Virus record (IMG/VR): IMGVR_UViG_2671180298_000003
Span: 1-18,913 of that record
Origin: a virus
Taxonomy: Duplodnaviria; Heunggongvirae; Uroviricota; Caudoviricetes
DNA length: 18,913 bases
Direction: 5' to 3' (one strand)
Made by a program: the position numbers and the translations under genes. Positions 3,713-18,913 of the stretch are shown piece after piece. The notes below the pieces were generated by a model that was not told where the DNA came from, made no database searches, and was given only the letters and a program-made list of their open reading frames with translations. Each line of letters opens with the position of its first letter. Position 1 is the stretch's first letter.

Positions 3713-4206
3713 TACTCCTCCTGCTGTAATTCCTCCTCATCATCCGCACCTGCTTCGGTCACCCGCAGGGCTATCTGATCGCGCAGATCATCAATAATGG
3801 ACTGAACACGGCTCACAGCGGCAGGCTGCAGGCCGCAGTCACGTTCCAGAATATCCGGTAATGTCTCCAGCACCTGCACGACCGCTTTTGCCCAGATGGC
3901 AAACTCCCGTCTGACATCACTGGCCGGAATGAGTTGTGCCGTTTCCTGTTCGAACTTAAGACGCTCACGTTCAGACTGATACCAGGCTTTGCGTTCATGT
4001 GGATCCATTTCGCCCTCAGCAACCGGCGGTGGTAACCCCATAAATTCAGTCAGAATATCGGTCAACCGGTATAGCTTGAGTTTGTCATGTCCACCAGCGG
4101 GACGAATGTTTTTCAGTCTTGCCACGACAGTCTGGCGGTGCAGACCAGATATCCGCATGCAGCTCGTCGTGATGCTTTCTGCACAAAGGCAACACAAAGA
4201 GGTCAT
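3712..4206 (-). CDS. Terminase small subunit (Nu1-like); start unresolved (GTG 4227 / ATG 4206 / ATG 4158)
   Basis: Immediately upstream of and coupled to the large subunit; HTH-like GLHRQTVVARL near the N-terminus, acidic C-terminal tail; the 5' end overlaps the upstream DUF968 gene in another frame. Confidence 0.6.
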   Translation of the reverse strand: MTSLCCLCAESITTSCMRISGLHRQTVVARLKNIRPAGGHDKLKLYRLTDILTEFMGLPPPVAEGEMDPHERKAWYQSERERLKFEQETAQLIPASDVRREFAIWAKAVVQVLETLPDILERDCGLQPAAVSRVQSIIDDLRDQIALRVTEAGADDEEELQQEE

Positions 4207-5056: not shown

Positions 5057-5057
5057 C

Positions 5058-5867
5058 TCAATGAACGGTATCGAGCAGCTTTAACAGCTCAGGGAATCGG
5101 GATTCGAAGAAATGCGGCTGCGTCTCGCGCGGATTGGCGGGACTGGTGATGTTCTTGCCGAACATGCAGCCTTTCGCTGTCAGCGACCAGAATTTTTTGA
5201 TGTTGTTAATCGCGGTACGGCTGTATCGTTCGCGCTGCTCGACGATCCCCAGCTTCACCATCTGGTGATATGCCTGATTAGCTGTCAGGCGGATACCATA
5301 CTGCTTCAGCAGTGCACTCAGTGACAGCGTGGGGCGGCTTGAGCCATCAGGCGCGTCAGCAGGAGCATCAATGGCATAGCGCGGTGCCAGATTCGGTAAG
5401 CCAACAGCCTCCTGGAGTTTCTGACAGGCACCAAGCACTGAAGAGTTAGACAGGTTTAATTCCCGGCGCATAAAGTCCAGCAGAATCACACCAGCCTGCA
5501 TCTTGTCAGCAGCCTGTCCGGATAATTTTTCCGGTGCGCTGGTTACCATGTCGAAAGTACGGATCACCTTCAGATGGAATGACGGGCTGATCCACATTGC
5601 ATAGGCATACACCAGTTCCTTGCAGACATACGTTCCCCGTTCATTTCCCCCATGAATCACACTCACCGGGTCAACACCCAAATTCTGGGTGTTGGTCAAT
5701 TCATGAACAAGCTCAACAGTTTGTTGGCTGGAAAGAAACTTTCCTGGCTCCTTGGTTCTGGCATTTGCACCAGATGCTACTGCTGCGCGATGCAGATCGT
5801 TCAGGCTGTAACGCCCATAAGCATCACGACGAACTTCAATACCATCAATGACCATCAGATTATTCAT
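5058..5867 (-). CDS. KilA-N domain-containing phage protein (antirepressor-like)
   Basis: 269-aa ORF; N-terminal KilA-N pattern (IDGIEVRRDAYGRYSLNDLHRAA ... GTYVCKELVYAYAMWISPSFHLKV); GAGGAG SD upstream of ATG. Confidence 0.7.
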   Translation of the reverse strand: MNNLMVIDGIEVRRDAYGRYSLNDLHRAAVASGANARTKEPGKFLSSQQTVELVHELTNTQNLGVDPVSVIHGGNERGTYVCKELVYAYAMWISPSFHLKVIRTFDMVTSAPEKLSGQAADKMQAGVILLDFMRRELNLSNSSVLGACQKLQEAVGLPNLAPRYAIDAPADAPDGSSRPTLSLSALLKQYGIRLTANQAYHQMVKLGIVEQRERYSRTAINNIKKFWSLTAKGCMFGKNITSPANPRETQPHFFESRFPELLKLLDTVH

Positions 5868-5886
5868 ACTTCGTTTCTCCTCTTAA

Positions 5887-6276
5887 TCAGGCGGCTGCAC
5901 CCGCCGGTTTCTCATACTTACTGATAGTGATCTCGACCTTCCCTTTCGGGATAACCGGTCCCCACTCCACCAGCATTCTTTTCACCTGTCTGTCGTCTTC
6001 CCACACACCCGCGTGGGTCAGGGCGTCAAACAGCGCCTTGTTATAGTTGTCCAGATCGCGGATCCGGTTATCCGGAGGAAACAACACGATCTCCACTGAA
6101 GCAGGTGCCGACGTTGGTTTCGGCAGACGACGTAACTGCTCAACTATTGCTGCGCACGCCGCGCTCTGAAATTTTCGCCCCGCCTCGCTTATCAGGCTCT
6201 TACCAGCAAATGCCCCTTTGTTGGGGTGTCGCCAGTACGTGTTCACGCTGGGCGGAAAAGGCAGTATTAGCTTCAT
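5887..6276 (-). CDS. rusA: Holliday junction resolvase RusA
   Basis: 129-aa ORF; RusA-like LPFPPSVNTYWR N-terminus and DLDNYNKALFDALTHAGVWEDD core; ATG overlaps the upstream stop (ATGA); GAGGGAG SD. Confidence 0.85.
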   Translation of the reverse strand: MKLILPFPPSVNTYWRHPNKGAFAGKSLISEAGRKFQSAACAAIVEQLRRLPKPTSAPASVEIVLFPPDNRIRDLDNYNKALFDALTHAGVWEDDRQVKRMLVEWGPVIPKGKVEITISKYEKPAGAAA

Positions 6277-6599
6277 ACTTTCAGCTCCCTCTCATGTAAC
6301 CAGTGGGCTGCACGCAGCCTGGCGTTTTCCTCACCGGCAAGCAGTGCGCGGATGATACCGACCGCTTCGCTGTCGTCGTCCTTCACCGCGGTATGAAGCG
6401 TGATCCCCCGGGCCACGCCACGCTTTATCGTGATGACGCCTTTTTTCTCCAGTGCGCGAAGATGCTCCACCGCTGCATTCACTGAACGGTATCCCAGCAT
6501 GGTTGCCACCTCCTGATTGGTTGGCGGGAAGCCACGTTCTTTCTGGTAAGAAATCAGCATATCCAGCACCTGCTGCTGGCATTGAGTTAACGTCGTCAT
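6273..6599 (-). CDS. LexA-family DNA-binding protein: N-terminal LexA winged-HTH domain only, no S24 peptidase domain
   Basis: 108-aa ORF; residues 1-70 align closely by eye with the E. coli LexA N-terminal domain (LTQCQQQVLDMLISYQKERGFPPT...GYRSVNAAVEHLRALEKKGVI...ARGI); ends 40 residues later with no Ser/Lys protease motifs; ATGA-coupled to Dam. Confidence 0.75.
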   Translation of the reverse strand: MTTLTQCQQQVLDMLISYQKERGFPPTNQEVATMLGYRSVNAAVEHLRALEKKGVITIKRGVARGITLHTAVKDDDSEAVGIIRALLAGEENARLRAAHWLHERELKV

Positions 6600-7249
6600 G
6601 CCGCCATCTCCCTGACCAGTTTTTCCGCCTGCTGGCGAACCTGCGCCAGAAAGGCCTCACCACATGCCTCAAGTTCATCGCGCCCGATGTAGCTGATTGC
6701 CGGTCCCTTCCAGGTCTTGTCGAAAACAGCAATAGCACCAGCGAAGAAAGCGCCTGTCGGCACCTGCTTCTCATCCTTCGGGATAAACCAGGCAGGCAGT
6801 TCAAAACCAATACGCCCGCGAATAAAAGCAATATGGTCTGCGTCTTCCGGCCACCACACTTCGCTGGTGGCAGCTTTGATCAGGAAAACATAGCGCCCGC
6901 CTTTATCACGCATGGAACTGGCATGCTTCATGATGTAACGCATGCCAGTGATGTATTGCCCCTCATGCTGACTGGCGCGGCTGTATGGGGGATTACCAAA
7001 GGCAGCCCCTTTAAGCTCCGCAAGACGTTCTGACCAGTCATGTGCCAGCGCGTTGTCTTCCGCCGTGTAATACGCGGCACATTTGGCGTTATCACCGTCA
7101 GTGAACAGATCCAGAACAAACGGACCAAACAGGGTGTTAATTCCCCAGAAAATGTTATCCGGCGTGCGCCACTGATCGCCCACTTCCTTCAGTTCATGGG
7201 CTGGTTTGTTCCGCAGTTCCACCAGCGCCTGGCAATATTTATTACTCAT
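6596..7249 (-). CDS. Phage Dam-family DNA N6-adenine methyltransferase
   Basis: NPPY catalytic motif (FGNPPYS) and N-terminal WRTP motif; ATG at 7249 with GGGGG SD, overlapping the PerC-like stop (TAATG); ORF-track start 7282 is probably an upstream extension. Confidence 0.8.
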   Translation of the reverse strand: MSNKYCQALVELRNKPAHELKEVGDQWRTPDNIFWGINTLFGPFVLDLFTDGDNAKCAAYYTAEDNALAHDWSERLAELKGAAFGNPPYSRASQHEGQYITGMRYIMKHASSMRDKGGRYVFLIKAATSEVWWPEDADHIAFIRGRIGFELPAWFIPKDEKQVPTGAFFAGAIAVFDKTWKGPAISYIGRDELEACGEAFLAQVRQQAEKLVREMAA

Positions 7250-7737
7250 TAAGCCCCCACGTAATTCCCTGACAGATACCACTCTTCACCTGATGCAGCC
7301 CGCTTATTGCTTTTCCGTAAACACCGTTCACGACGCGCCAGAAAATTATTTCGTTCTGGCTGGGAGTGGCTTTCACGGAATGCCGCCATCCACACCGTTG
7401 CAGCACGACGGTATAAGCCCCTGGACTCCAGTTCTTCCGCCTGGCGGGTCAGGCACAAAATCACCCGCGGGTCGTTAGTGCCGACATAGAAATTGCGCAC
7501 AGGTCTGGTTTCACGAACTGGTTGTGGTTCCGGCTCCTGCGCTCTCTCAGTCAGGCGTGGGAAATGTCTGCGTGTATCTCCTTCACAACGGTGAGCCACA
7601 CGCCCACTCTGACGTAACTTGCTTGCTGACTGCAGAACGCGCTGCCGTGAGTAACCTGCAAAAGCATCCGCAATGTCTCCGGAAGTACACCCCGGATGGG
7701 CTTCAATGAATTTCTGAACTTCATTCAAAAGACTCAT
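7249..7737 (-). CDS. PerC-family transcriptional activator-like protein (YfdN-like)
   Basis: C-terminal LESRGLYRRAATVWMAAF resembles the conserved PerC/Pch motif; ATG at 7737 (third codon of ORF) with GGGGG SD; 2 nt after the upstream TGA. Confidence 0.5.
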   Translation of the reverse strand: MSLLNEVQKFIEAHPGCTSGDIADAFAGYSRQRVLQSASKLRQSGRVAHRCEGDTRRHFPRLTERAQEPEPQPVRETRPVRNFYVGTNDPRVILCLTRQAEELESRGLYRRAATVWMAAFRESHSQPERNNFLARRERCLRKSNKRAASGEEWYLSGNYVGA

Positions 7738-7739
7738 GA

Positions 7740-8558
7740 TCACCCCCTGAATCCTGCCGGGATCTGGCTGTAGTCCACGTTGTCGTAACTGGCTTTGAAG
7801 TACGGGTCCTCACGTCTGGCTGCAGATACCGCAGGAACTTCCCAGGATTCTTCGAAATGACGATCCGGACCAAAGAACGTGACAGCCTGTTTCACAAATT
7901 GTGTGCCGCTGTTACCCATCGCAGATACCCAGCCTGCATAGCGTTTCACACCTTCCAGCATGGTTTCGGGGTTTACCCCCTCATTCAAACGGGCTTTCCA
8001 GGCTTTGAAGGCTGCTGATTTTGAATTGCCACCAGCACGTTTGGGGTATGCCAGCCATGCCTGCTCAAACTCCGGAGAGTATTCCGGTCGGTTTGAACGA
8101 ACTCGCACGGACTCATCAGCAGATGCACCAACAGCTATTGGTTCATTGACTGGTTCTTTGACTGGTTCAAAAGAGTGACTGGTTCTGGGTGAATCTCCTG
8201 CACTACCCCCTGGTGCAACTCCTGCACTACCTGGTGAATTTGCTGCACCAGATAGTGAATTATTTGCACTACCCCCTAGTGAATCTCCTGCACCATCCAG
8301 ATGAAGGAGATAGATATTACTTGAGTTACCTTTTTCACCTTTCCGGGTGACTTTTTTTACCAGCCCGGACTCACAAAGGGCCGCAATATGATTCATCACA
8401 GAACGTTTGCTAATCTCGCACTGGTCAGCAATATGCTGGTAGCTGGGCCAGCACTCCCCCTGATCGCTGGCATTATCAGCCAGCTTGATCAGAACCAGTT
8501 TTCGCAATGGATTACCCACTCGAATTTTCATCGCTTTAACCATCAGCTCCATACTCAT
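7740..8558 (-). CDS. Replication initiator / replisome organizer (lambda O-like, YfdO-like) with internal iteron-bearing linker
   Basis: 272 aa; N-terminal winged-HTH typical of phage replication proteins; Gly/Ser/Ala-rich linker encoded by direct nucleotide repeats; lies downstream of cro/CII-like genes. Confidence 0.6.
   Translation of the reverse strand: MSMELMVKAMKIRVGNPLRKLVLIKLADNASDQGECWPSYQHIADQCEISKRSVMNHIAALCESGLVKKVTRKGEKGNSSNIYLLHLDGAGDSLGGSANNSLSGAANSPGSAGVAPGGSAGDSPRTSHSFEPVKEPVNEPIAVGASADESVRVRSNRPEYSPEFEQAWLAYPKRAGGNSKSAAFKAWKARLNEGVNPETMLEGVKRYAGWVSAMGNSGTQFVKQAVTFFGPDRHFEESWEVPAVSAARREDPYFKASYDNVDYSQIPAGFRG
8189..8300. repeat. Putative replication origin: about five ~22-24-bp direct repeats (iterons, core cTGCACtacc...GTGAAt) inside the O-like gene, preceded by three gactggttc repeats (8147-8185)
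   Basis: Repeats read directly from sequence; arrangement parallels lambda ori inside gene O. Confidence 0.55.
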
Positions 8559-8779
8559 GCAGCACCTCCGAGATGCTTCATGTTTTTTCCGGAGCGAAAG
8601 GTTATAAGCGGCATACTGACGCGGTAACTACGGCCCAGCGGTTCACAAATCACCTTCTGACATTCACGGTCAACCAGGCTAACACGTAGAACATGCCCTG
8701 CAGGTGTGGTGTACCACTGACCCGGACGAGGACAACGGAAAGTCTGATTGGTAAACCGTTTGAAAATATTCCGGATCAT
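8555..8779 (-). CDS. Hypothetical small phage protein (74 aa)
   Basis: ORF bracketed by ATGA/ATGA overlaps with both neighbours, consistent with translational coupling; no recognisable domain. Confidence 0.4.
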   Translation of the reverse strand: MIRNIFKRFTNQTFRCPRPGQWYTTPAGHVLRVSLVDRECQKVICEPLGRSYRVSMPLITFRSGKNMKHLGGAA

Positions 8780-9924
8780 TTGCGCCCCCTTACCTCTGAA
8801 GGGTTCAGCGACAAATTTATGAGGCAGGCCAGTGCCGAAGCATCATTAATATAGTCATACAAGCTAACAGCCAGCGGAGATTCGGCTTTTGCCAACATAG
8901 GATAAAGCTGCTGCAGCCAGACCTGATGAATTGATGAAATGTAGGAATAGAGAACGCTGGCGTTATGTGCAACGTCGCTCGGTACAGGGGGTTTTGAAAG
9001 CTGTTTCTCCATCTGGTTAAAGGCATTGATATATGCCTCTTTGAACTGGGCAGCACGTTTACCCGTGAAACCCATAGCAAGAAACGCAAAGCCGTCGCGG
9101 GTTATTTGATAGCAAGGTAGTTTGCGGCCTGATGCGTCGATGTACTCACTGAGCTGAAAATTCAGCTCAGTAAATTCGGCAGAGCATTCAAGAGACGCAA
9201 TTTTTTGAATGACATTTTTGTGTTGTTTGCCGAAATAACTAGCAACAGCCAGAGAAGAAGTAACAACTTTGTCTGCAATAATGCAAAGTTCAGGTTGTAC
9301 TAAGGCAGGGATCGTAGCCATGATGGCAGCCTCCGTATGCAATGGATAACTTCCACCACCGGAAACGCCAATTTCGCTGGTGGTGAACTGAGCAGGGTTG
9401 GCGTAACCGGCGCATACGGAAACCGGCGCACCTTTCGGTGCCCCCACCCAGCCCACCATAATTTGGGTATAGCTGAGTTGTAGCAACAAAAAAGACGCTA
9501 ACGCGCCAATTGTCGCCGTATGCAATTCCAGGACGCCAATCCCGGCACCCGCTTTATAAGGTGCCTGAACAGTGTAACGTCCCGGAATGGCAGAATCAAT
9601 GTGCTGGTGGTCCTTCACACTCAACAAAATCACGCCTGAATTTCCACAAAGGACTAAAGCACTCATGCGGGTAGTCTTTGCGAAGATAGATAACGCGCTG
9701 TGTTTCTGGCTCCCAACGAATAACATGGACATAAAGCCCTCTTCCGTCACGAAACCAGCGGTTAAGTTCCTGCACAACTCGCCCCCCACAGTCAGGTAAA
9801 GTTCTCTGTGGTTACTTACAGCCAGGTGATCTGGTAATCTGCATTCATGCCGTAACAACAGGTGTTCAGCGACACTGACCACCAGCTGTTGCGACAAACG
9901 GTTATTTGCCGTTAAACTGTTCAT
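8776..9924 (-). CDS. Rha-family phage regulatory protein with ~200-aa N-terminal extension; nested in-frame start at 9321 would give a 181-aa Rha-only product (8776..9321)
   Basis: C-terminal 181 aa begins MATIPALV and carries the Rha signature GFAFLAMGFTGKRAAQFKEAYINAFNQME; GGAGG SD 8 nt upstream of internal ATG 9321; upstream ATG 9924 overlaps the stop of the preceding gene (ATGA) and the frame stays open for 201 codons. Confidence 0.65.
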   Translation of the reverse strand: MNSLTANNRLSQQLVVSVAEHLLLRHECRLPDHLAVSNHRELYLTVGGELCRNLTAGFVTEEGFMSMLFVGSQKHSALSIFAKTTRMSALVLCGNSGVILLSVKDHQHIDSAIPGRYTVQAPYKAGAGIGVLELHTATIGALASFLLLQLSYTQIMVGWVGAPKGAPVSVCAGYANPAQFTTSEIGVSGGGSYPLHTEAAIMATIPALVQPELCIIADKVVTSSLAVASYFGKQHKNVIQKIASLECSAEFTELNFQLSEYIDASGRKLPCYQITRDGFAFLAMGFTGKRAAQFKEAYINAFNQMEKQLSKPPVPSDVAHNASVLYSYISSIHQVWLQQLYPMLAKAESPLAVSLYDYINDASALACLINLSLNPSEVRGRK

Positions 9925-10472
9925 GCGTTAGTTTCTCCACAGACACAAAACGCCACGACGCCCGGAGCTGCACACTCGCGGGCGTCACTCTTTTCTGGAG
10001 CGCAGAAGATTTTGTAGACCAGTGCTGCATGCTCCTGGAGCTTCGAAATTGACAGATACAACTCATCATTAATTGCTGTCTGCTCGTGTGGCTCCACGAC
10101 CCCATCTTCGATTGCCGAACGAATCTGCTTTGAGTAATTCCCGATCTGTTCGATGACTTCCAGCAGGCGCTGGTTTATATCGGCGTTCTCTACTTCCTCA
10201 ATTTCAGGAAGCGATACGAACACCCCACCGGCAGACTGTGCGACAGCATCCGCAATGTAGTGAGTGCCAGCCGCGCGCTGTAAAACCATTGCCCATCCCA
10301 GCGGGAAAATCTGATCGCCATCTGCACGAAGGCGGTTGAATAAAGCGTTCTCTGTTACATCCAGCCAGTCAGCAGCTTCAGCGTAACCCCCAGGCAATGC
10401 CGCGATAGTTTTTCTGACAGCTTTCACGTACCACTCAGGTTGTTTTTCCACTTTCCAGTGATGCTTACCCAC
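9921..10472 (-). CDS. Putative CII-like (CP76-type) phage regulatory protein
   Basis: 183-aa ORF directly after cro; GTG start with GGAGG SD 6 nt upstream; HTH-like segment GGYAEAADWLDVTENALFNRL; family assignment tentative. Confidence 0.4.
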   Translation of the reverse strand: MGKHHWKVEKQPEWYVKAVRKTIAALPGGYAEAADWLDVTENALFNRLRADGDQIFPLGWAMVLQRAAGTHYIADAVAQSAGGVFVSLPEIEEVENADINQRLLEVIEQIGNYSKQIRSAIEDGVVEPHEQTAINDELYLSISKLQEHAALVYKIFCAPEKSDARECAAPGVVAFCVCGETNA

Positions 10473-10725
10473 GGCTTACCTCCTGTTCCTGTGGTTTAAA
10501 CCCATTCTGGTTTTGGCTAGATTGAAAACGTGCCGGATAAAGAATCTGCATTTCGCTGATTTCACCCTTAAAAAAATTGGCCAGACGTTCTGCAAGATCG
10601 ATAGATGGAATTTGTTCCAGTCTTTCAATACGACTCAGCGTCGCTGGATTGACCTGAACGCCCGCAGCAACATGCTGCAAAGTAAATCCGTGCGCCTTAC
10701 GCACATTTCGTAATGGTGATTGCAT
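10465..10725 (-). CDS. cro: Cro-like XRE-family HTH repressor
   Basis: 86 aa; HTH FTLQHVAAGVQVNPATLSRIERLEQ; divergent from cI across an operator-rich 97-bp spacer; GGAGG SD 5 nt upstream. Confidence 0.75.
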   Translation of the reverse strand: MQSPLRNVRKAHGFTLQHVAAGVQVNPATLSRIERLEQIPSIDLAERLANFFKGEISEMQILYPARFQSSQNQNGFKPQEQEVSRG

Positions 10726-10822
10726 ATAACCTCCACATATTGCGTGATGAGCATATTATTTCACGCAAATATTTTGCGCAAGTTGATTTGCTTAACGCGC
10801 AATAAAGAAATGTAATAAACGC
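10726..10822. promoter_or_regulatory. Immunity switch region (OR-like): divergent cro and cI promoters with operator-like sites
   Basis: TTGCTTAACGCGCAA (10788-10802, TTGC-N7-GCAA), palindromic TTGCGCAA (10774-10781), inverted repeat TTGCGTGA...TCACGCAA (10740-10768); putative -35 TTGCTT / -10 TGTAAT ending at the cI ATG. Confidence 0.6.
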
Positions 10823-11515
10823 ATGAACATAGGAAACCGAGTCAGACAACTTCGCCAGGCGAAGAACATGAAAATCGCCGATCTCGCTGAAGCAATAGGA
10901 GTGGATGCGGCGAATATCTCGCGCCTGGAAACAGGTAAGCAGAAACAATTCACTGAACAAGCCCTGAGTAATATTGCCAGGAGCTTAGGTGTTGATATTG
11001 CTGATCTCTTTACCTCAGACGTCAAAAGTAATACTGTATGTAAAAACAGTATTAGTGAGGATGTTGCGCAGGTGAAGGATGTATTCCGTATTGAAATGCT
11101 GGATGTCAGTGCCAGTGCGGGAAATGGCCTTATCCAGGGCGGTGATGTCATTGATGTGATTCATGCCATTGAATACAGAACTGATAATGCTGTATCGATG
11201 TTTGGCGGACGACCAGCCAATCACATTAAAGTTATCAACGTTCGTGGGGACAGTATGTGTCCAACCATTGAGCCAGGAGATCTCATCTTCGTTGATATCA
11301 GTATCAATCAGTTTGATGGGGATGGTATATATGTATTTGGTTTTGATGATAAAATTTACGTCAAACGACTGCAAATGATACCTGATAAACTGCTGGTAAT
11401 TTCTGATAATCAGATTTACCGCGAATGGGGAATTACCAGCGAAAACGAACATCGGTTTATGGTCTTTGGAAAGGTCTTAATCAGTCAGTCACAAACCCTT
11501 AAGCGACACAATTAA
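10823..11515 (+). CDS. cI: CI-type prophage repressor (N-terminal XRE HTH, C-terminal S24 LexA-like peptidase)
   Basis: 230 aa; HTH MKIADLAEAIGVDAANISRLETGK; Ala-Gly cleavage site (SASAGNG); catalytic Ser in GDSM and Lys in YVKRL. Confidence 0.9.
   Translation: MNIGNRVRQLRQAKNMKIADLAEAIGVDAANISRLETGKQKQFTEQALSNIARSLGVDIADLFTSDVKSNTVCKNSISEDVAQVKDVFRIEMLDVSASAGNGLIQGGDVIDVIHAIEYRTDNAVSMFGGRPANHIKVINVRGDSMCPTIEPGDLIFVDISINQFDGDGIYVFGFDDKIYVKRLQMIPDKLLVISDNQIYREWGITSENEHRFMVFGKVLISQSQTLKRHN
11032..11051. promoter_or_regulatory. LexA/SOS-box-like palindrome TACTGTATGTAAAAACAGTA inside the cI coding sequence
   Basis: Perfect CTGT-N8-ACAG with TA flanks and AT-rich spacer; only such site found in a manual scan of the window. 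Confidence 0.4.
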
Positions 11516-11536
11516 CCCCCTACCTCAACATCAATT

Positions 11537-11558
11537 AGCCACCAGAAGGTGGCTTTTC
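11537..11558 (+). terminator. Rho-independent terminator downstream of cI
   Basis: Hairpin AGCCACC-agaa-GGTGGCT followed by TTTT, 22 nt after the cI stop. Confidence 0.6.
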
Positions 11559-11571
11559 ATTACCCACCAAA

Positions 11572-11610
11572 TTGCATATCTCGCAATAAAAACACTTGCA
11601 TAATGCGCAA
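11572..11610. promoter_or_regulatory. OL-like operator pair / probable early-left promoter region
   Basis: Two TTGC-N7-GCAA sites (TTGCATATCTCGCAA 11572-11586; TTGCATAATGCGCAA 11596-11610) matching the motif in the cI/cro spacer. Confidence 0.5.
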
Positions 11611-12055
11611 CTTCATTTTATCTTTCTTTCCAGACCTACAAACAAGGTACTAACAAAATTTGGTTGTAACACGGCGTATGGCACATGCGTCGTTAGCGGT
11701 CTGGGGACGTTAAAGGGGACAATCCACTCCTTGCTCGGGCAAACAAACCAGGTAGCCGGAATGTGCAAGTCAATGATGATGCTGATAAGACGCCTAACCA
11801 GCGTGGCGATTCGGTTTGACGCCTGGGAAGAGACCAGGGTGCAACGATGAGGGCATTTATGGAGCCGCGACAAAGTGTGGTGCCGTAACTGGCTAAGTGC
11901 TCTCAGCGTTGTGGTGAATGCGCAGGCTGATGCGCGAAAGACATTGCAGCTATTGCGGAAAAGAGCTGTTCGGCGGGGCAATTAAACGCCCGTGAGAGTC
12001 TGAAATAACCGCAAGCCGGAGATCAGCACCGGTCACCACAACAGCCACTGCTTTG

Positions 12056-12101
12056 GCGGTACCAGTTTGTACACTTGCTTCCGGCTGGTACCGCTCTTTT
12101 T
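12056..12101 (+). terminator. Terminator-like hairpin in early-left leader, overlapping a boxA-like CGCTCTTTTTAC
   Basis: Perfect 10-bp stem GCGGTACCAG/CTGGTACCGC, 19-nt loop, then TCTTTTT. Confidence 0.4.
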
Positions 12102-12238
12102 ACAAAACAGAGAAGAGCATCACCGGACGACGGGCTCATAACCCAATCCATCCGGGCGGCTGCCACCGCAGGTGTTCTTCTCTGTTTTGTGGAGAAACCA
12201 ACCGACCTTGCAGGGTCGATATGATGAGGAGCAGCAAA

Positions 12239-12601
12239 ATGGCTAGCGAACGCAGTACTGATGTGCAGGCATTTATCGGGGAGCTGGACGGCGGCGTATT
12301 TGAAACCAAAATCGGCGCAGTTCTCAGTGAAGTCGCTTCAGGTGTGATGAACACGAAAACCAAAGGTAAGGTCTCACTCAACCTGGAAATCGAACCATTT
12401 GATGAGAACCGTGTGAAAATCAAACACAAACTCTCATATGTTCGCCCGACTAACCGCGGGAAAATTTCCGAAGAAGACACCACCGAAACGCCGATGTATG
12501 TCAATCGCGGTGGTCGCCTGACTATTCTGCAGGAAGACCAGGGACAATTACTGACTCTTGCCGGTGAACCTGACGGAAAACTACGCGCAGCAGGTCATTA
12601 A
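12239..12601 (+). CDS. Hypothetical early phage protein (YfdP-like, 120 aa)
   Basis: AGGAG SD 7 nt upstream of ATG 12239; ORF-track upstream extension (TTG at 12053) crosses leader hairpins and lacks an RBS. Confidence 0.6.
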   Translation: MASERSTDVQAFIGELDGGVFETKIGAVLSEVASGVMNTKTKGKVSLNLEIEPFDENRVKIKHKLSYVRPTNRGKISEEDTTETPMYVNRGGRLTILQEDQGQLLTLAGEPDGKLRAAGH

Positions 12602-12666
12602 TATCGTTCTTAATTAACTGATTATTTATCTCATCACTGAATATCTTTATATAGTGAGGACTTATT

Positions 12667-13491
12667 ATGTCTCAGAACTTAGACGCAACCGCAATTAATC
12701 AAATCCATGCCCTTATTTCTGCTCAGGGTGTTAATGAAATTATCAGTAAGATTGGTGCCGATGCTGTGGCATTGCCTGAGAATTTCCGCATTCATGATCT
12801 GGAAAAATTTAATTTAAATCGCTTCCGTTTCCGTGGTGCGCTTTCCACTGCCAACATCGATGACTTTACCCGTTATTCTAAAGATCTTGCAGATGAAGGC
12901 ACCCGCTGCTTTATCGATGCTGATAATATGCGTGCCGTCAGTGTACTTAACCTGGGTACTATTGATGAACCAGGTCACGCAGATAACACCGCCACTCTCA
13001 AACTGAAAAAGACAGCACCGTTCTCTGCCCTGTTGTCTGTTAACGGCGAGCGTAACTCCCAGAAGTCACTGGCAGAATGGATTGAAGACTGGGCCGACTA
13101 CCTTGTGGGCTTTGATGCTAATGGTGACGCTATTCAGGCAACAAAAGCGGCTGCGGCAGTCCGTAAAATCACGATTGAAGCAAACCAGACCGCTGATTTT
13201 GAAGATAATGACTTCAGCGGCAAACGCTCCCTGATGGAATCTGTCGAAGCGAAGACCAAAGACATTATGCCAGTGGCATTTGAATTTAAATGCGTTCCGT
13301 TTGAAGGTCTGAAAGAACGTCCGTTTAAATTACGCCTCAGCATTATCACTGGCGATCGTCCTGTACTGGTTCTGCGCATTATTCAGCTGGAAGCGGTGCA
13401 GGAAGATATGGCTAACGAATTTCGTGATCTGCTTGTTGAGAAATTCAAAGACAGCAAAGTAGAAACCTTTATTGGTACTTTCACCGCCTGA
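12667..13491 (+). CDS. yfdQ: YfdQ-like protein (DUF2303 family), function unknown
   Basis: 274 aa, same length and operon position as CPS-53 YfdQ; GAGGA SD upstream; family call from memory. Confidence 0.6.
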
Positions 13492-13503
13492 TTTCATTAC
13501 TGC

Positions 13504-13527
13504 AAATGCCCCTGCGGGGGCATTTAT
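13504..13527 (+). terminator. Intra-operon rho-independent terminator/attenuator
   Basis: AAATGCCCC-tgcg-GGGGCATTT hairpin followed by AT-rich tail, 13 nt after the yfdQ-like stop. Confidence 0.55.
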
Positions 13528-13618
13528 GGAAACGTAATTAACTCAATAATCACCGGATGGTGAGGGCTTCCTTTTACCCAAACTCAGCGCGGTGCAGCGC
13601 ATATACGTGGAGAACAAA

Positions 13619-14155
13619 ATGTCATTTATTAAAACTTTTTCCGGGAAGCATTTTTATTATGACAAGATAAATAAAGACGACATCGTGATTAACGATATCG
13701 CGGTTTCCCTTTCAAATATCTGCCGCTTTGCCGGTCATCTTTCTCACTTCTACAGTGTCGCCCAACATGCGGTGCTTTGCAGCCAGCTGGTGCCGCAGGA
13801 ATTTGCTTTTGAAGCGTTAATGCATGATGCAACAGAAGCGTATTGCCAGGATATTCCCGCTCCACTGAAACGCCTTCTTCCTGACTATAAACGGATGGAA
13901 GAAAAAATTGACGCCGTAATCCGTGAGAAATACGGGTTACCCCCAGTTATGAGTACGCCCGTGAAATATGCCGATCTTATCATGCTGGCAACCGAACGCC
14001 GCGATCTCGGGCTTGATGATGGCTCTTTCTGGCCTGTACTGGAAGGCATCCCGGCAACAGAGATGTTCAACGTGATTCCACTGGCACCTAGCCATGCCTA
14101 CGGGATGTTTATGGAACGTTTTAACGAGTTATCGGAGTTACGCAAATGCGCATGA
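13619..14155 (+). CDS. yfdR: HD-domain phosphohydrolase, YfdR-like 5'-deoxynucleotidase
   Basis: 178 aa from ATG 13619 (GGAG SD); HD signature H...HD (SVAQHAV ... LMHDATEA); ORF-track GTG start at 13592 is probably an extension. Confidence 0.7.
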   Translation: MSFIKTFSGKHFYYDKINKDDIVINDIAVSLSNICRFAGHLSHFYSVAQHAVLCSQLVPQEFAFEALMHDATEAYCQDIPAPLKRLLPDYKRMEEKIDAVIREKYGLPPVMSTPVKYADLIMLATERRDLGLDDGSFWPVLEGIPATEMFNVIPLAPSHAYGMFMERFNELSELRKCA

Positions 14156-14508
14156 ATGTTTTCGAAATGGAAGGGTTTCTTCGCGGGAAATGTGTACCGC
14201 GAGATCTGAAAGTGAACGAAACAAATGCTGAGTACCTGGTACGTAAATTCGACGCGCTTGAAGCTAAATGTGCGGCACTGGAAAACAAAATAATACCAGT
14301 GTCAGCTGAACTGCCACCAGCAAATGAAAGTGTTCTGTTATTTGATGCTAACGGAGAAGGCTGGCTGATTGGCTGGCGTTCTCTCTGGTACACTTGGGGA
14401 CAAAAAGAAACCGGAGAATGGCAGTGGACATTTCAGGTCGGGGACCTTGAAAACTTCAATATCACTCACTGGGCAGTAATGCCAAAAGCGCCGGAGGCTG
14501 GAGCATAA
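14146..14508 (+). CDS. DUF551-like phage protein (YfdS-like)
   Basis: 120 aa; C-terminal ITHWAVMPKAPE motif; GGAG SD; overlaps upstream stop. Confidence 0.55.
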   Translation: MRMNVFEMEGFLRGKCVPRDLKVNETNAEYLVRKFDALEAKCAALENKIIPVSAELPPANESVLLFDANGEGWLIGWRSLWYTWGQKETGEWQWTFQVGDLENFNITHWAVMPKAPEAGA

Positions 14509-15128
14509 TGACCACATTTACCAATAAAGAACTGATTAAAGAAATCAAAGAACGAATCAGCAGCCTAGAGGTTCGAGACGATATTGAGCGCCGTGCTTAT
14601 GAAATTGCTCTGGCATCGCTAGAAGAGGAGCCGGTGGCATGGCTGCATTCAGAAAATGGCTTAGGTATTCCGGCAATAACGAGGAGTAAAAACATTGCTG
14701 ACAGTTGGTTATCAAAGGGCTGGTATGTTCAGCCGCTATATATAGCCAAGCCAGTGCCGGTGGTGCCAGATGCTCGTCCGTCTTTAAATAATGGCATAGT
14801 CGGCTTTGATGAAGGCTGGAACGCCTGCCGCGCCGCCATGCTTAATGGTGCCGAACCTGTAAGCCAGACTTACAAGTTGAACGAGCTGTCGGGCAACTCT
14901 CCGGTAACTCCGGATGGTTGGATAAGCTGTAGTGAGCGAATGCCGAACGATAAACAGTATGTTTGGTGTTGGGGTAAGTCTTACGGCTGGACTGAGTGCG
15001 ATACCTTCGAAGGGTATTACGATTGTTCGAGAAACAAATGGTGGGCAGTTACTGACAATGGGGAAGAACCGGCATCGAAAGTAACCCACTGGATGCCGCT
15101 ACCGGAGCCACCGCAGGAGGTGAAGTAA
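14508..15128 (+). CDS. DUF551-domain phage protein (YfdT-like, longer form)
   Basis: 206 aa; C-terminal W...ERMP...VTHWMPLPEPP motif; TAATG overlap with upstream gene. Confidence 0.55.
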   Translation: MTTFTNKELIKEIKERISSLEVRDDIERRAYEIALASLEEEPVAWLHSENGLGIPAITRSKNIADSWLSKGWYVQPLYIAKPVPVVPDARPSLNNGIVGFDEGWNACRAAMLNGAEPVSQTYKLNELSGNSPVTPDGWISCSERMPNDKQYVWCWGKSYGWTECDTFEGYYDCSRNKWWAVTDNGEEPASKVTHWMPLPEPPQEVK

Positions 15129-15322
15129 TGAACAACTTAATGACAACTAAACAAGTCGCCGACTTCTGTGGCGTTTCAGTATCGACCGTTCTTCGCTGGA
15201 ACAGCGTAAACAGGAGAACTGGCCAGAAATACAGGCCAGACTTTCCAGATCCTGATATTAAATCATGCCCAAATAAATGGGCATCACGCAAGATTTACAA
15301 ATTTGCGGGAGTTATTGAGTAA
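15128..15322 (+). CDS. Excisionase-like HTH DNA-binding protein (AlpA/TorI family)
   Basis: 64 aa; HTH MTTKQVADFCGVSVSTVLRW; strong AGGAGGTGA SD; last gene of early-left operon, facing the integrase. Confidence 0.7.
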   Translation: MNNLMTTKQVADFCGVSVSTVLRWNSVNRRTGQKYRPDFPDPDIKSCPNKWASRKIYKFAGVIE

Positions 15323-15357
15323 CGAGCATTAGCTCAGATGAGAGTTGGTACACCTAT

Positions 15358-15398
15358 GGCACAGAGCTAAACCTGATCTGTTATATTCGCTCTGTGCC
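15358..15398. repeat. Perfect 10-bp inverted repeat GGCACAGAGC / GCTCTGTGCC with 21-nt spacer between convergent genes
   Basis: Read directly from sequence; nested TAGCTC/GAGCTA repeat at 15330-15369; no U-tract on either strand. Confidence 0.4.
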
Positions 15399-15429
15399 GG
15401 AAGTATGCCATATTTATTACATACAGTTG

Positions 15430-17562
15430 TCAATCTTTAAGACTAATTGTGATTGCATCTGGAAATCCAATTTGGCTATAGCACATAGTTTCGGTTATGA
15501 ATAATTTTCTATCGATAAAATCAAGTACATCTTTTTTCGTGAGCCCCGTTAACATCGTCAATTTGTTAATTACATAATCATACCAATCATGGTGAAGCAT
15601 GTTTATATACATGTTAATATCAACTGCATCTTTCTTCCATGAGTTATTCGGTATCAAATCTTCAGATAAAAATCCTCTTATTAAATCGCTTGCATAGGAC
15701 ATCCTAAGAAAAACAGAAAGAAAAAGCCTTACATTAACATGTGTAAAATTTGTAGATAGCGTCGAAGGAAACTCGTAAAACCGGTAGATCAACCGACTTA
15801 CAAACACAGCAGAGTCTATCGCATTTACTGGCAGTAATGTTCCGATGACACTTAATGCACCACTTATAACGAAGCCATTAGCAACAGAGGCATGAGAACC
15901 GCTTAGGGCAGATGTTAAACATGCACTCAGAATTACGATAGGAGGAATTCTTGCTATTTTTCTCAAACTCCAAGTGTCCACTTTATCCTCACCTATTATT
16001 AACCATCCATGACTCCCATTGCCATCATGGTTTCCATGACAATCCATAACAAGAATATGACCTTGATATTGATTTAGAGCATCAATAAACTCAGCTTTCG
16101 ATCTAACATCAATAATCTCGCAATCAAGATCTGGCATCTGTTTTTTAAATATCTCAATTGCGTTCTCTAATATGAACTTTAAGTGATCATCAGGCTCAAA
16201 AGAACGTATAACTAAAACCTTTCTCAACTCAGATGCTTTTACTAAAACGCGCGGAAAAGCAGAGGCGCTCTGTAGAAGAACGTTACCAGGCGTAGCATTT
16301 ATTCTTGATATCTCATGACTGAACATTATAGGTATGTTATTAAACCTAATCCAATCCAATGGTACATCACAAACAAAGGACAAATCGCTATAGTTTTTAC
16401 TTATATATGTTCTCAACTTGCAACCAAGGGCTCTTCGAATAACAGTATTGAATGCTTTAGATTTAGTGATGAATGCTTCACTATTTATCCCAGAAGAAGT
16501 TGCAAGATCTTCAAGATTTTTCAAATAATTGGAGTAATGATTTATTGCATTTGGCAATCTTATTGCTGGGATTTTTTTATTTATGCTAAATAAAGTAATC
16601 GCAGCTGTTGTTAATCGCATTTCAGCGCGTCTTAGTGAGGTGAGGTAACGGAAAGCAGGACTTTTAAAAAGTTCTTTTCTATCTGAATTTATATCAAGTC
16701 TAATTCCAGAATAGCCAGGATTCCTCAACACTCCATCAATAAGGAATTTTTTCTCAATTGTGGATAAATTTTCCGTTATTAACTCATAAAAGTCATTATT
16801 TTTATCATATAAAAAAGAGTGCATACCCGGAGCAAAAAGTAAGACTTCCGTTGGAAGTGGTATATCTAATTCCTTTAAACATTCGGTGTATGCATCAACG
16901 CTATGAAGTATTATTTCTATAAACTCTCTTTTGCTACTACCATCTTTAATTCTTTTTGGTGGAGATAGCATATAGCCAAGTGATTCAATTAACAACTCAT
17001 TGGGTAGTGTTGAATTGTTAAGCGTCGATCTCCAAGGTGATTTATTAAATAAAGCCCCTCTTCGCTTCAACTTCGTTGATATTTTCTTTTCACTGTGATT
17101 TTTTCTTATTTTATCCTCAATGAATTTCAACCGAGAGAAGAGCACCTTATCAAATGAGTATATACTATTAATCTTATTAAGTGGTAGATCAGCGCGTTTA
17201 GAATTGCAACAAATTATAGGTGGTATAGCAAAATGTTTTTTTAAAGCACAAACATACGAAAAATCTTCTTTAGCACAAAAAATTAAGCAAAATGGCGTTT
17301 GATAAATATTTGGTATTTTTTCAAGATTTTCTTTAGATATTAAAAAAATAGGATTTAGCCCGCTTAGAGTAGGCTGAAAGTTATCATTTTCATTGACAAA
17401 AATCTCACTAATTTCTTTTGGTGTTTTGGCCAATAAAAAAAGAATGTTGGATATCTCTGGGTTGAGGAGGCCAGTATCGAAACCTTGGATTATGGTTTGT
17501 TCCCCAGTAGTAGGCATGATTACAACTTTAAGTATCGCCCCGTGTTCCTGTAACAGTTCCAT
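15430..17562 (-). CDS. CHAT (caspase-like) protease domain protein with ~470-aa uncharacterised N-terminal region; candidate phage-defence/abortive-infection cargo
   Basis: ATG at 17562 with AGGA SD 6 nt upstream (ORF-track TTG at 17619 adds 19 hydrophobic residues); caspase/CHAT His-Cys dyad context ILVMDCHGNHDGNGSHGWLIIGED ... IPPIVILSACLTSALSG ... GALSVIGTLLPVN; strongly AT-rich relative to flanks. Confidence 0.7.
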   Translation of the reverse strand: MELLQEHGAILKVVIMPTTGEQTIIQGFDTGLLNPEISNILFLLAKTPKEISEIFVNENDNFQPTLSGLNPIFLISKENLEKIPNIYQTPFCLIFCAKEDFSYVCALKKHFAIPPIICCNSKRADLPLNKINSIYSFDKVLFSRLKFIEDKIRKNHSEKKISTKLKRRGALFNKSPWRSTLNNSTLPNELLIESLGYMLSPPKRIKDGSSKREFIEIILHSVDAYTECLKELDIPLPTEVLLFAPGMHSFLYDKNNDFYELITENLSTIEKKFLIDGVLRNPGYSGIRLDINSDRKELFKSPAFRYLTSLRRAEMRLTTAAITLFSINKKIPAIRLPNAINHYSNYLKNLEDLATSSGINSEAFITKSKAFNTVIRRALGCKLRTYISKNYSDLSFVCDVPLDWIRFNNIPIMFSHEISRINATPGNVLLQSASAFPRVLVKASELRKVLVIRSFEPDDHLKFILENAIEIFKKQMPDLDCEIIDVRSKAEFIDALNQYQGHILVMDCHGNHDGNGSHGWLIIGEDKVDTWSLRKIARIPPIVILSACLTSALSGSHASVANGFVISGALSVIGTLLPVNAIDSAVFVSRLIYRFYEFPSTLSTNFTHVNVRLFLSVFLRMSYASDLIRGFLSEDLIPNNSWKKDAVDINMYINMLHHDWYDYVINKLTMLTGLTKKDVLDFIDRKLFITETMCYSQIGFPDAITISLKD

Positions 17563-17645
17563 CAAAAATCCTAATAAACAAATAAAAATGTTATAATCAA
17601 AAACTGCAAGGATTAGCAAGCAATTCTTACAGTTTTAAGAAGGGG

Positions 17646-17671
17646 ATTATACCGCAATATGCATAATTGCG
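17646..17671 (-). promoter_or_regulatory. Putative promoter of the CHAT gene: perfect -10 TATAAT (minus strand) abutting a 19-bp palindrome CGCAATATGCATAATTGCG
   Basis: Read from sequence; palindrome occupies the -35/spacer position; no good -35 hexamer. Confidence 0.4.
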
Positions 17672-17695
17672 TTCTGCCTATGCAAAATGTCAGTT

Positions 17696-18913
17696 CTAGT
17701 CTGAACAAGTACAAGTAACTATCGATTCAACCCTCTCCCACCACGCCTGGTAAGCTTTACGCTGTTCTTCTAAATAATCGCTCTTGTCATAAACCTGCCA
17801 TACCCCTGGCAGTTTATGACCGAGCATTATTTCTGCAATATGAGGCGCAGTAAGATCAGAAAAGTTTGTTCGTGCTGTTCGTCTCAAATCATGAAGAGAC
17901 CAATGAGGGAATTGATACCCCAAACGCCGCCATGCGTACTGCATTAAATTGTAAGGCAGCGACTGCAATGATGTCCGTCCAACGGGCTCCCTGCTTCCTT
18001 CCTTAGTAAAAAGCATATCGGAACCATTGTTCATAGAGATAACGTACTTTATAAGCTCTTCAACCGGTTCAATAATGGGGCGCTTTAGCGGTTCGCCTGT
18101 TATATCCCCTGTCTTATGTCGTTCTGGCGGTACAGTCCATACCTTATTTATGAAATCAAAATCATCCACCCTAGCAGTAATTAGCTCCGAACTACGGCAA
18201 CCAAAATGCAGTAATAGTTTAATGAAGGCCCGGTATTTGGGAACCATTCTAGAGCCATCGATCGCAGCATAAAGAATTTTAATTTCATCGTGTGTCAGAA
18301 ACCGTTTCTTCTGACCTTTACGGATATCCATATCTTTACCCGTGATATCCGACAGCGGGCGAGTTTCAATAAGCTTTCTCTTATACGCCCAGACATGGGC
18401 CTGCTTTGCGTTAATTAGCAATCGGTCTGCTATTGCTGGAGTCTTAGTGCTAAGAGGCTCCAAGACTTCTAACCAATCATGCAATGTAGCTGCATCGTGA
18501 GGGATATTCCCGATTTTAGAGAACAGGTGCAGCTCAAACGAGCGGAGTATCTGTTCAGAACCCTTTTTATTTTTTACACAATATGCTTCATACCAGGCAC
18601 GGATCACAGACTCTACCGTCATGGCTTCAGTAGCTTTTCGTTTTTCAGCCTGCTTGACCAATCGTGGATTACGGTTTGACTCGAGTTCACCACGGAGACG
18701 GATAACTTCTTCTCTGGCCTCTTTTAATCCAGTTGCCGGGTAAGTTCCGATATCAAGACGCTCACCTTTCCCTGCCCATTGATAACGATATTGGAACACT
18801 ACGCGACCTTTCGGTGATACTCTGACAGACAGACCATCACGATCGGATTTAACCAAAACCTTATCACGTTCCTTTCCAACGACTGAACGCAACCACGCAT
18901 CAGACAGCGCCAT
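17696..18913 (-). CDS. int: Tyrosine-type site-specific integrase, P4-like family
   Basis: 405 aa; N-terminal arm-binding-type domain (GLSVRVSPKGRVVFQYRYQWAGKGERLDIGTYP); C-terminal catalytic residues (HDLRRT ... Y); start codon is the last three bases of the window. Confidence 0.85.
   Translation of the reverse strand: MALSDAWLRSVVGKERDKVLVKSDRDGLSVRVSPKGRVVFQYRYQWAGKGERLDIGTYPATGLKEAREEVIRLRGELESNRNPRLVKQAEKRKATEAMTVESVIRAWYEAYCVKNKKGSEQILRSFELHLFSKIGNIPHDAATLHDWLEVLEPLSTKTPAIADRLLINAKQAHVWAYKRKLIETRPLSDITGKDMDIRKGQKKRFLTHDEIKILYAAIDGSRMVPKYRAFIKLLLHFGCRSSELITARVDDFDFINKVWTVPPERHKTGDITGEPLKRPIIEPVEELIKYVISMNNGSDMLFTKEGSREPVGRTSLQSLPYNLMQYAWRRLGYQFPHWSLHDLRRTARTNFSDLTAPHIAEIMLGHKLPGVWQVYDKSDYLEEQRKAYQAWWERVESIVTCTCSD

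Follow-up and report, generated by a model that had tools for sequence, protein, structure and literature searches.

What occupies the roughly 600 untranslated nucleotides that lie between the putative early-left promoter and the first early-left gene of Enterobacteria phage mEp460? The window analyzed here, an 18,913-nt stretch that forms positions 1 to 18,913 of the Caudoviricetes record IMGVR_UViG_2671180298_000003 in IMG/VR, is 100% identical to mEp460 (JQ182728), in reverse orientation. The original prediction, made from the letters alone, described an untranslated and highly structured leader ahead of the early-left operon, and this description holds: the leader (11625-12240, + strand) folds at z -6.67 relative to shuffled sequence and is without coding signal. 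Its proposed core was a hairpin and an inverted repeat close to the ribosome-binding site, which are indeed present, but the 400 nt upstream of them (11670-12042), holding two modules that we call A and B, had been missed. We find that the leader is a chain of separately conserved RNA elements, without being a single riboregulator, and that A and B are portable modules, that is, covariation-supported RNA motifs found in unrelated phage contexts. Each of them occurs in hundreds of phage contigs, including the ban operon of phage P1. The terminator and inverted repeat are fairly ordinary by comparison, and A and B are the most remarkable part of the leader. The order is A, a spacer of transfer RNA (tRNA) type, B, the terminator T1, the hairpin C and the ribosome-binding site, and compensatory base changes support A, B, T1 and C each.

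11670-11839, + strand: module A, a pseudoknotted RNA motif of ~170 nt (covariation, at least 240 IMG/VR instances)
11849-11904, + strand: spacer hairpin and tRNA-type 5' leader, ending in AAGTGCTCTC (alignment; folding free energy -22.6 kcal/mol, z -2.6)
11908-12042, + strand: module B, a cloverleaf-like four-way junction with a hypervariable arm (covariation, at least 190 instances)
12055-12101, + strand: T1, predicted intrinsic terminator, stem 12055-12067 with 12083-12095 (10-13 bp, GC-rich), then UCUUUUU
12102-12190, + strand: C hairpin, a lower stem of ~20 bp around the near-invariant interior CACCGGRCGACGGGCTCATWACCCAATCCAYCCGGGCGG
12191-12198, + strand: conserved GGAGAAAC
12203-12208 with 12213-12218, + strand: small hairpin whose sequence changes while its pairing is kept in alignments (fold alone z -0.56)
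12226-12231, + strand: Shine-Dalgarno GAGGAG, ahead of the yfdP start codon ATG 12239-12241

Comparison of the leader by BLAST with phage and Escherichia coli collections showed that its stretches travel separately and adjoin tRNA genes elsewhere. Positions 11671-11914 were found just 5' of tRNA-Arg in a phiV10-like prophage (L002), 11896-12041 just 5' of tRNA-Ser in a 95-kb phage-plasmid (L003), and 11658-11832 just 3' of tRNA-Ile both in the 95-kb phage-plasmid and in P1, where they lie between trnI and ban. Part of the leader is present in more than half of complete E. coli genomes. The CPS-53 remnant of K-12 has in common with it, upstream of yfdP, only the final 20 nt before that gene, and neither module A nor module B is found in the K-12 prophage DLP12. 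An unannotated structured RNA had been suspected in this region, and A, B, T1 and C are all conserved without an Rfam 15 match: at gathering threshold the 4227 models match the window only at C4 and IsrK, both outside the leader, and at E up to 10 the interval 11500-12300 gives only three chance-level matches (E 1.6-6.7). Likewise, literature searches by topic and by exact core strings found no description of A or B, although a catalogue of 8,495 candidate RNAs from IMG/VR may contain them (PMC10690425).

Module A is resolved into the following parts.

11672-11676 with 11688-11692, + strand: helix H1
11700-11704 with 11748-11752, + strand: helix H2, closing a variable hairpin
11751-11769, + strand: invariant block GGTAGCCGGAATGTGCAAG
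11790-11793 with 11801-11804, + strand: helix H4, with a 7-nt loop
11796-11799 (AACC) with 11813-11816 (GGTT), + strand: pseudoknot
11822-11826 with 11834-11838, + strand: helix H6, loop GAAGAGA

Covariation was assessed here and below from pair counts and column shuffles. In 109 distinct cores, every helix of A exceeds all 300 column shuffles and shows double compensatory changes; for example, one pair of the 5' hairpin is G-C in 65 cores and A-U in 44, and the stem closing the variable hairpin has C-G in 71 and U-A in 37. Across the set, a stem of 4-5 bp presents a 7-nt loop, YUCACCA, that forms a pseudoknot with a downstream GGUG (C-G 93, A-U 12), of which mEp460 has the compensated form AACC/GGUU. 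Three pairs of the 3' hairpin with the loop GAAGAGA covary as well. The long-range complementarity GCACAU/AUGUGC is invariant on both sides and hence gives no covariation signal. Among the pairs of A, G.U outnumbers A.C by 359 to 20, and the corresponding counts for B are 54 and 23. Because G.U exceeds A.C in both modules, they point to functional RNA read from the + strand, which is the direction of the putative early-left promoter pL.

Module B was first delimited by aligning mEp460, the phage-plasmid, a P1-like phage, HK620, a Klebsiella Ackermannviridae phage and Erwinia phage phiEt88, an alignment in which two near-invariant blocks surround a stretch variable in both length and sequence.

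11908-11916 with 12034-12042, + strand: P1, GUUGUGGUG with CACCACAAC
11917-11919, + strand: junction or linker AAU
11920-11924 with 11931-11935, + strand: P2, GCGCA-GGCUGA-UGCGC
11936-12014, + strand: variable arm
12015-12019 with 12029-12033, + strand: P4, GCCGG-AGAUCAGCA-CCGGC, stacked directly on P1

Further instances came from exact-word scans of IMG/VR with either block, each giving at least 120 loci and together at least 190, with inserts of 24 to >166 nt between the blocks. Since such harvests are anchored on exact core words, the invariance of the search words is partly by construction, and each block was checked in the harvest anchored on the other. In the core alignment of 113 distinct sequences, 88.4% of cells pair, as compared with 77.7% in shuffles and 28-46% when partners are slid, and 20 of the 27 pairs have changed on both sides; none of 500 shuffles reaches the observed values. 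The covarying pairs comprise the inner 8 bp of P1, all five of P2 and three of the five of P4. In addition, a single-sequence fold of the mEp460 module independently yields P1-P4. The hairpin loops of B are complementary to each other (GCUGA/UCAGC) and both near invariant, with 5 G.U-compatible changes and 3-4 disruptive ones at terminal positions.

The topology of B is that of the tRNA cloverleaf. A 3' arm of 5 bp stacks directly on the closing stem, a linker of 3 nt leads into a 5' arm, a variable arm lies between these two arms, and the complementary loops are placed as the D-loop and the T-loop; moreover, B sits in tRNA slots of arrays and shares tRNA leaders. However, B has neither the T-loop and D-loop consensus nor a conserved CCA or anticodon loop, its P1 is 9-16 bp long, and its loops would pair in Watson-Crick fashion, unlike those of a tRNA. 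ARAGORN finds no tRNA in the window, so B is not called. RNAs that resemble tRNA do exist, an example being the bacterial Y RNA YrlA. The variable arm can itself contain tRNA-derived sequence: in three IMG/VR contigs (L088, L124 and L067) it holds tRNA D-arm and T-arm sequences, and in L124 ARAGORN calls a tRNA-Pro inside B, so that a tRNA or a fragment of one appears nested in the motif. We also note that in SfV (L212, 1052-1180), ST64B (L209, 988-1130), L210, L211, L217, L277 and L445, B is replaced by other modules ("B2" and "B3") that retain the P1 strands (GTTGTGG...CCACAAC) and the GAATGCG start but have different internal hairpins, and that likewise lie upstream of T1. B, B2 and B3 may form a superfamily of cassettes for tRNA slots.

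The distribution of B is broad, and its neighbors vary. The exact 20-mer of its core occurs in alpha-, beta- and gammaproteobacterial genomes, including Enterobacterales, Pseudomonas, Xanthomonadales, Burkholderiales, Rhizobium, Methylobacterium and others; among the 120 loci listed, 91 carry the full B motif, and about ten have the 20-mer in an unrelated, probably coding context. One such context is fixed in six loci of Dyella, Silanimonas and Methylobacterium genomes (L529, L540, L544, L578, L579 and L586), where CATGTCGATCGCnA precedes the 20-mer GAATGCGCAGGCTGATGCGC, a string like CCGGAnATCAGCTCGGC follows 24 nt after it and P1 is absent; here the 20-mer probably belongs to a conserved protein-coding gene instead of module B. 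Genuine copies of B are co-oriented with their neighbors, at a median of ~100 nt from the next open reading frame (ORF) and ~120 nt from the previous one, and in ~20% of cases a tRNA on the same strand lies no more than 250 nt away. B is often located between Q and the holin gene or after cI, and in HK620 it is found between qut and the annotated tQ. The proteins encoded downstream fall into 105 clusters among 121, and a terminator follows within 150 nt in only 17 of 146 cases. A riboswitch role for B, with T1 as its platform, was therefore rejected, because terminators seldom follow B and there is no association with any gene. An identity with the Pas small RNAs was also considered. These are ~84-nt Hfq-type RNAs with their own intrinsic terminator, restricted to Escherichia and Shigella (bioRxiv 10.64898/2026.05.13.724894), and by this description of length, terminator and host range B does not qualify, as it is without a terminator of its own and spread across Pseudomonadota.

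Could the conserved blocks instead be protein-coding, as annotated, or sites that act at the DNA level in recombination, packaging or binding? We consider this very improbable. The original prediction held that there is no convincing ORF in the leader; ORFs do exist, of 84 aa on the + strand and of 122 and 47 aa on the - strand, the latter two being annotated in GenBank as hypothetical proteins (mEp460_036 and mEp460_037), and stop-free frames are frequent in GC-rich elements this short. For that reason a stop-free-frame test is uninformative, and the 3-base periodicity of substitutions was used in its place, on the variable columns of ungapped homologs. By this test the leader ORFs have no coding signal (p 0.28, 0.60 and 0.93), whereas yfdP, yfdQ and cI give p 7e-8 or lower, and Pfam has no match for any leader ORF. 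Furthermore, indels in the modules do not come in multiples of three, the lengths of the variable arm of B being evenly spread over the three residues modulo 3. Compensatory changes keep the pairing, including the strand-specific G.U excess given above, and the modules always have the same orientation as neighboring tRNAs and genes. The entries mEp460_036 and mEp460_037, and possibly plp and upl of P1, are probably spurious.

Between A and B, the spacer ties the leader to tRNA genes, as it also precedes the tRNA-Arg of the phiV10-like prophage. In enteric phages, the 5' flank of B, AGTGCTCTTTCCGTT, is common to this genuine tRNA-Arg gene (L002). About 20% of B copies have AGTGCTCTTTCC, which contains TGCTCTTT, upstream (for example, L007 at 2004-2022), the flank lying within 20 nt of B. 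The conserved flank AGTGCTCTTTCCGTT includes TGCTCTTT, identical to the first 8 nt of the rrn boxA, and could be a processing signal or a Nus-factor site. A boxA reading of TGCTCTTT before B was set aside, as the string is found in only ~20% of copies and as its equivalent in mEp460, the degenerate GTGCTCTC (11895-11904), is base-paired inside the spacer hairpin.

Downstream of B, the hairpin that had been proposed as a terminator is borne out. Its perfect 10-bp arms (12056-12065 and 12085-12094) extend to 13 bp and are followed by TCTTTTT, and the fold has a free energy of -21.2 kcal/mol (z -5.35), with none of 200 shuffles as stable. Of 61 distinct relatives, 56 have a hairpin directly against the T run, with at least eight different compensating stem sequences; SfV, ST64B, Citrobacter phage phiNP and a Klebsiella phage, for example, all keep it before CTTTTTACA with different stems. 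Since the stems vary and still compensate, we infer that T1 is a real intrinsic terminator, selected as such. As a GC-rich hairpin with a U tract inside a leader, it resembles the attenuators of other phage leaders, but no alternative antiterminator pairing was found in the mEp460 leader.

The 14-bp inverted repeat CAAAACAGAGAAGA/TCTTCTCTGTTTTG likewise proved to be a conserved, covarying RNA hairpin, so that a comparison of relatives, suggested by the original prediction, shows covariation in the paired segments of both the terminator hairpin and the repeat. It is the core of a 25-nt repeat (12102-12126 with 12166-12190) that is 84% complementary, and the resulting 89-nt hairpin C has a free energy of -45.5 kcal/mol (z -7.27) and is found in at least 120 viral contigs. 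In the minimum-energy fold its lower stem runs for 20 uninterrupted pairs, and this stem covaries: double changes number 27, whereas 300 shuffles give 20 at most. The 40-nt interior of C is almost invariant. C stands before different first genes, which indicates a leader element and not one specific to yfdP. The RNase III sites in phage early leaders, known from the lambda N leader and T7 early RNA, belong to a size class of ~20-bp duplexes. C, a near-perfect duplex of ~20 bp between the non-coding leader and the first ribosome-binding site, matches them in length and position, and is a candidate processing or stability element of RNase III type; it differs from a simple RNase III site in carrying the near-invariant 40-nt interior, which such a site would not need.

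These data bear on the idea that the hairpin, the boxA-like string and the inverted repeat together form a switch upstream of the ribosome-binding site that antiterminates in a boxA- and Nus-factor-dependent or put-like manner. The elements exist, including CGCTCTTTTTAC at 12092-12103, which does resemble the boxA of lambda nut and rrn, and the terminator and the inverted-repeat hairpin are kept as a unit. However, relatives do not retain the GCTCTT core, showing GTCCTT, GACCTT or GCCCTT in its place, and only the CTTTTTACA tail is invariant, so the boxA reading was dropped; the boxA-like letters are just the 3' arm of T1 plus its U tract. The leader has neither a boxB nor an N gene. Moreover, C lies 3' of T1 and so cannot block its formation, and no alternative pairing with consistent covariation was found. 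We therefore give the switch hardly any credence.

The putative early promoter of the upstream modules lies between cI and A, and the following features were found in this region and around it.

10465-10725, - strand: cro (PHROG and Pfam scans)
10823-11515, + strand: S24-type cI repressor, upstream of the leader (PHROG and Pfam scans)
11537-11554, + strand: terminator-like hairpin closing the cI gene, AGCCACC-AGAA-GGTGGCT then TTTT, directly past the cI stop at 11515 (consensus scan)
11572-11586 and 11596-11610: two operator-like 15-bp direct repeats, TTGCATATCTCGCAA and TTGCATAATGCGCAA, each an imperfect palindrome TTGC..GCAA (repeat search)
11596-11624, + strand: putative pL promoter, -35 TTGCAT 11596-11601, 17-nt spacer, -10 TATCTT 11619-11624 (read from sequence)
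12239-12601, + strand: yfdP homolog, the first early-left gene, with strong codon periodicity of substitutions
12667-13491, + strand: yfdQ (DUF2303), next after yfdP

The OL-like sites of the original prediction are thus present as the repeats at 11572 and 11596, where the repressor would be expected to bind, and the first early gene begins at 12239 as it had stated. The -35 and -10 elements of pL are weak, below the cut-off of a stricter promoter scan, and transcription from them would start at ~11631, so that A begins ~40 nt past the putative start. Similar layouts of promoter and operator precede module A in L002, L098 and L177. More generally, the 110 nt upstream of A contain a sigma-70-like promoter in 23% of distinct copies, compared with 3% of control windows, and the 700 nt downstream contain an intrinsic terminator in 71%, compared with 22-29% of controls, at a median of ~244 nt. 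A same-strand tRNA follows within 300 nt in 33 of 184 copies, and a tRNA ends upstream in four; B lies 160-520 nt downstream in 40 of 208 copies. A 5'-deoxynucleotidase gene and others follow yfdQ among the early-left genes (PHROG and Pfam). As had been predicted, no N-like gene is visible: PHROG and Pfam scans of the main ORFs of the window found neither an N-like nor a Q-like antiterminator.

The cassette-like nature of this layout can be best illustrated by L002, which has TTGACA, 17 nt and TACCTT with a palindromic operator, then A, the mEp460-type spacer and tRNA-Arg, and finally a terminator that is similar to T1 in its tail, CCGC-ACTTTTTACA. In the place where L002 holds tRNA-Arg, mEp460 holds B. 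In Erwinia phage phiEt88, B is followed by tRNA-Phe and then a terminator. In the P1 ban operon, B comes after tRNA-Asn/Thr and A after tRNA-Ile; A starts within ~17 nt of the 3' end of tRNA-Ile both in P1 and in the 95-kb phage-plasmid, in which B ends 6 nt before tRNA-Ser. In the P1 sequence (L005, AF234172), A occupies 3501-3685 between trnI and ban, and a compensated variant of B lies at 2314-2400, in the direction of the ban operon and antisense to plp and upl as annotated. P1 also has tRNA-leader-like AGTNCYCTTWCCGTTG strings at 2063 and 2557, which suggests further cassettes.

We propose that the leader is a portable non-coding RNA cassette of the form promoter, A, cargo and T1, inserted between pL and the early-left genes, with T1 attenuating the operon. 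This is the reading we favor, and we would give it an even chance of being right. It is based on the finding that L002, with the same layout, carries tRNA-Arg where mEp460 carries B; the cassette would be a mobile non-coding RNA gene of the phage tRNA-island type, whose cargo is either a tRNA or the tRNA-like B. On derepression, most polymerases would make an A-B RNA of ~470 nt and stop at T1, and trimming of this RNA in the manner of a tRNA precursor would probably yield A and B as stable RNAs that act on some conserved host machinery. Polymerases that pass T1 would transcribe yfdP, yfdQ and beyond, and C would most likely serve as a double-stranded processing or stabilizing site that parts the mRNA from the non-coding portion. 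Several points weigh against this proposal. A strong terminator before all early-left genes in a phage in which no protein antiterminator was found fits a dedicated read-through mechanism equally well. B shows no enrichment of downstream terminators (34% versus 25-27%) and usually has no promoter of its own, so that any action in trans would require its co-transcription and processing. The enrichments were computed over distinct sequences, not over independent lineages, and are inflated by relatedness. Finally, that transcription ends at T1, that A and B are set free as stable RNAs and that C is cleaved are all predictions from sequence.

It would be tempting to see in A, possibly with B, such a read-through mechanism, namely a protein-independent, cis-acting processive antiterminator like put of phage HK022. 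The RNA would fold after pL and stay on RNA polymerase, enabling it to pass both T1 and Rho-dependent sites within the 600 untranslated bases; the early-left genes would then be reached only by transcripts initiated at pL. HK022 put suppresses termination in cis through the zinc-binding domain of the beta' subunit of RNA polymerase. It is ~70 nt long with two stem-loops, and putL is located immediately 3' of PL and counteracts intrinsic as well as Rho-dependent termination (PMC9378689). Like put, the A/B leader is a cis-encoded structured RNA next to an early lambdoid promoter in an N-less phage, with terminators downstream (PMC9378689). The position of A, ~40 nt after the putative pL start with T1 following at 12055-12101, and its promoter-proximal position elsewhere, agree with this, as do the conserved terminator downstream of A and the finding that neither the pL-T1 interval nor the rest of the window encodes an N-like protein or another antiterminator protein. 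Furthermore, the invariant loops and double pseudoknot of A would suit binding to a conserved host machine, and the untranslated tRNA arrays found 3' of A would need shielding from Rho. However, we regard such an antiterminator, the main rival of the cassette reading, as unlikely, if worth serious attention. The conserved A/B blocks have no match in the HK022 immunity region even at 4-7 mismatches, and the architecture differs: put has its two stem-loops and is restricted to HK022-like phages (PMC9378689), whereas A measures ~170 nt and has two contacts of pseudoknot type, and B forms a four-way junction. On these grounds the leader does not belong to the put family. In a search for paired divergent copies like putL and putR, the sole candidate (L010) turned out to be a late-region copy beside an insertion sequence (IS) element. 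In addition, the A-tRNA-Arg unit of L002, with two terminators behind it, looks like a self-contained gene, A sits mid-operon after tRNA-Ile in P1, and B is often downstream of Q and qut, where Q already antiterminates.

A further alternative is that A, B or both are self-cleaving ribozymes or dedicated substrates of RNase P or RNase E, which cut polycistronic transcripts into tRNAs and mRNAs with defined ends. Processing of tRNAs by ribozymes is known in gut phages, where HDV-like "theta" ribozymes perform it. The promiscuous contexts of the modules (105 clusters among the 121 flanking proteins) would be expected under this alternative, and so would the invariant junction and loop nucleotides with their pseudoknot or loop-loop contacts, the positions directly beside tRNAs noted above, and the 5' leader, and apparently the trailer, that B has in common with true tRNA genes. 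On the other hand, no ribozyme family of Rfam 15 matches even at E up to 10, the topology of A is unlike the cores of HDV, twister and hammerhead ribozymes, and P1 of B covaries beyond a 7-bp acceptor stem, which makes it an atypical RNase P substrate. We consider a processing role quite improbable. Returning to the cassette that we favor, the host machinery on which its RNAs would act may be conserved throughout Pseudomonadota, and A and B may be two undescribed, widespread classes of phage non-coding RNA that act on it; we put this forward tentatively, as a proposal with somewhat more against it than for it. The ~45-nt core of B is kept nearly letter for letter from phages of Rhizobium to those of Pseudomonas and E. 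coli, and to our knowledge conservation of this kind is normally seen only in RNAs that touch the translation or transcription apparatus, or in catalytic RNAs. Within this proposal, A could possibly be a new sort of leader that gives untranslated phage RNA an antitermination or anti-Rho activity without any protein, and B possibly a tRNA-shaped decoy or effector, for example against tRNA-targeting defense nucleases or a tRNA-processing enzyme. Self-assembly of B by way of its complementary loops, like that of ROOL and GOLLD, is pure speculation.

ROOL and GOLLD are structured non-coding RNAs of phages and prophages, often found near tRNA islands, with kissing-loop contacts and a poorly conserved internal linker (PMC12286853). 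Like them, A and B are structured phage RNAs of no assigned purpose, often located beside tRNAs, with complementary loops and a variable interior. However, ROOL and GOLLD are 500-800 nt or more in length and come mainly from Firmicutes, Actinobacteria and environmental phages, whereas A and B measure 140-250 nt, occur in phages of Pseudomonadota and have no Rfam match. A and B thus appear to be new classes within a known kind, the orphan structured phage RNAs near tRNA islands (PMC12286853). If they are functional, as the covariation indicates, two compact and very widespread classes are added to the short list of such orphan RNAs. Because they occur in tractable E. coli phages (P1, HK620, SfV, mEp460 and Stx2 phages), their function can be tested directly, which has so far been difficult for ROOL and GOLLD. 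In N-less lambdoid phages, a promoter-proximal RNA with a conserved terminator behind it would also rank, after HK022 put, as just the second candidate for antitermination by RNA alone.

Outside the leader, several other features of the window deserve mention. The integrase gene lies at 17696-18913 on the - strand. Between it and the early-left genes, a 729-aa ORF (15430-17619, - strand) has a weak match to the CHAT domain and matches the PADLOC model BovA of the Borvo defense system (E 2e-241); it is a candidate anti-phage defense gene carried by the prophage. A regulator with a KilA-N domain (5058-5867) is encoded immediately before the genes for the HNH endonuclease and terminase, and the early-right operon includes a gene for a PerC-like transcriptional activator (7249-7743), both on the - strand; either of them could be the late-gene activator of this Q-less phage. 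The two Rfam matches, C4 antisense RNA (9376-9463, 80.7 bits) and IsrK RNA (9488-9564, 61.2 bits), both on the - strand, fall within a 382-aa ORF (8776-9924) that GenBank annotates as "regulatory protein Rha". The site looks like an RNA-controlled antirepressor module of the P1/Gifsy type, which suggests that the 5' part of the annotated Rha ORF is really a non-coding leader.

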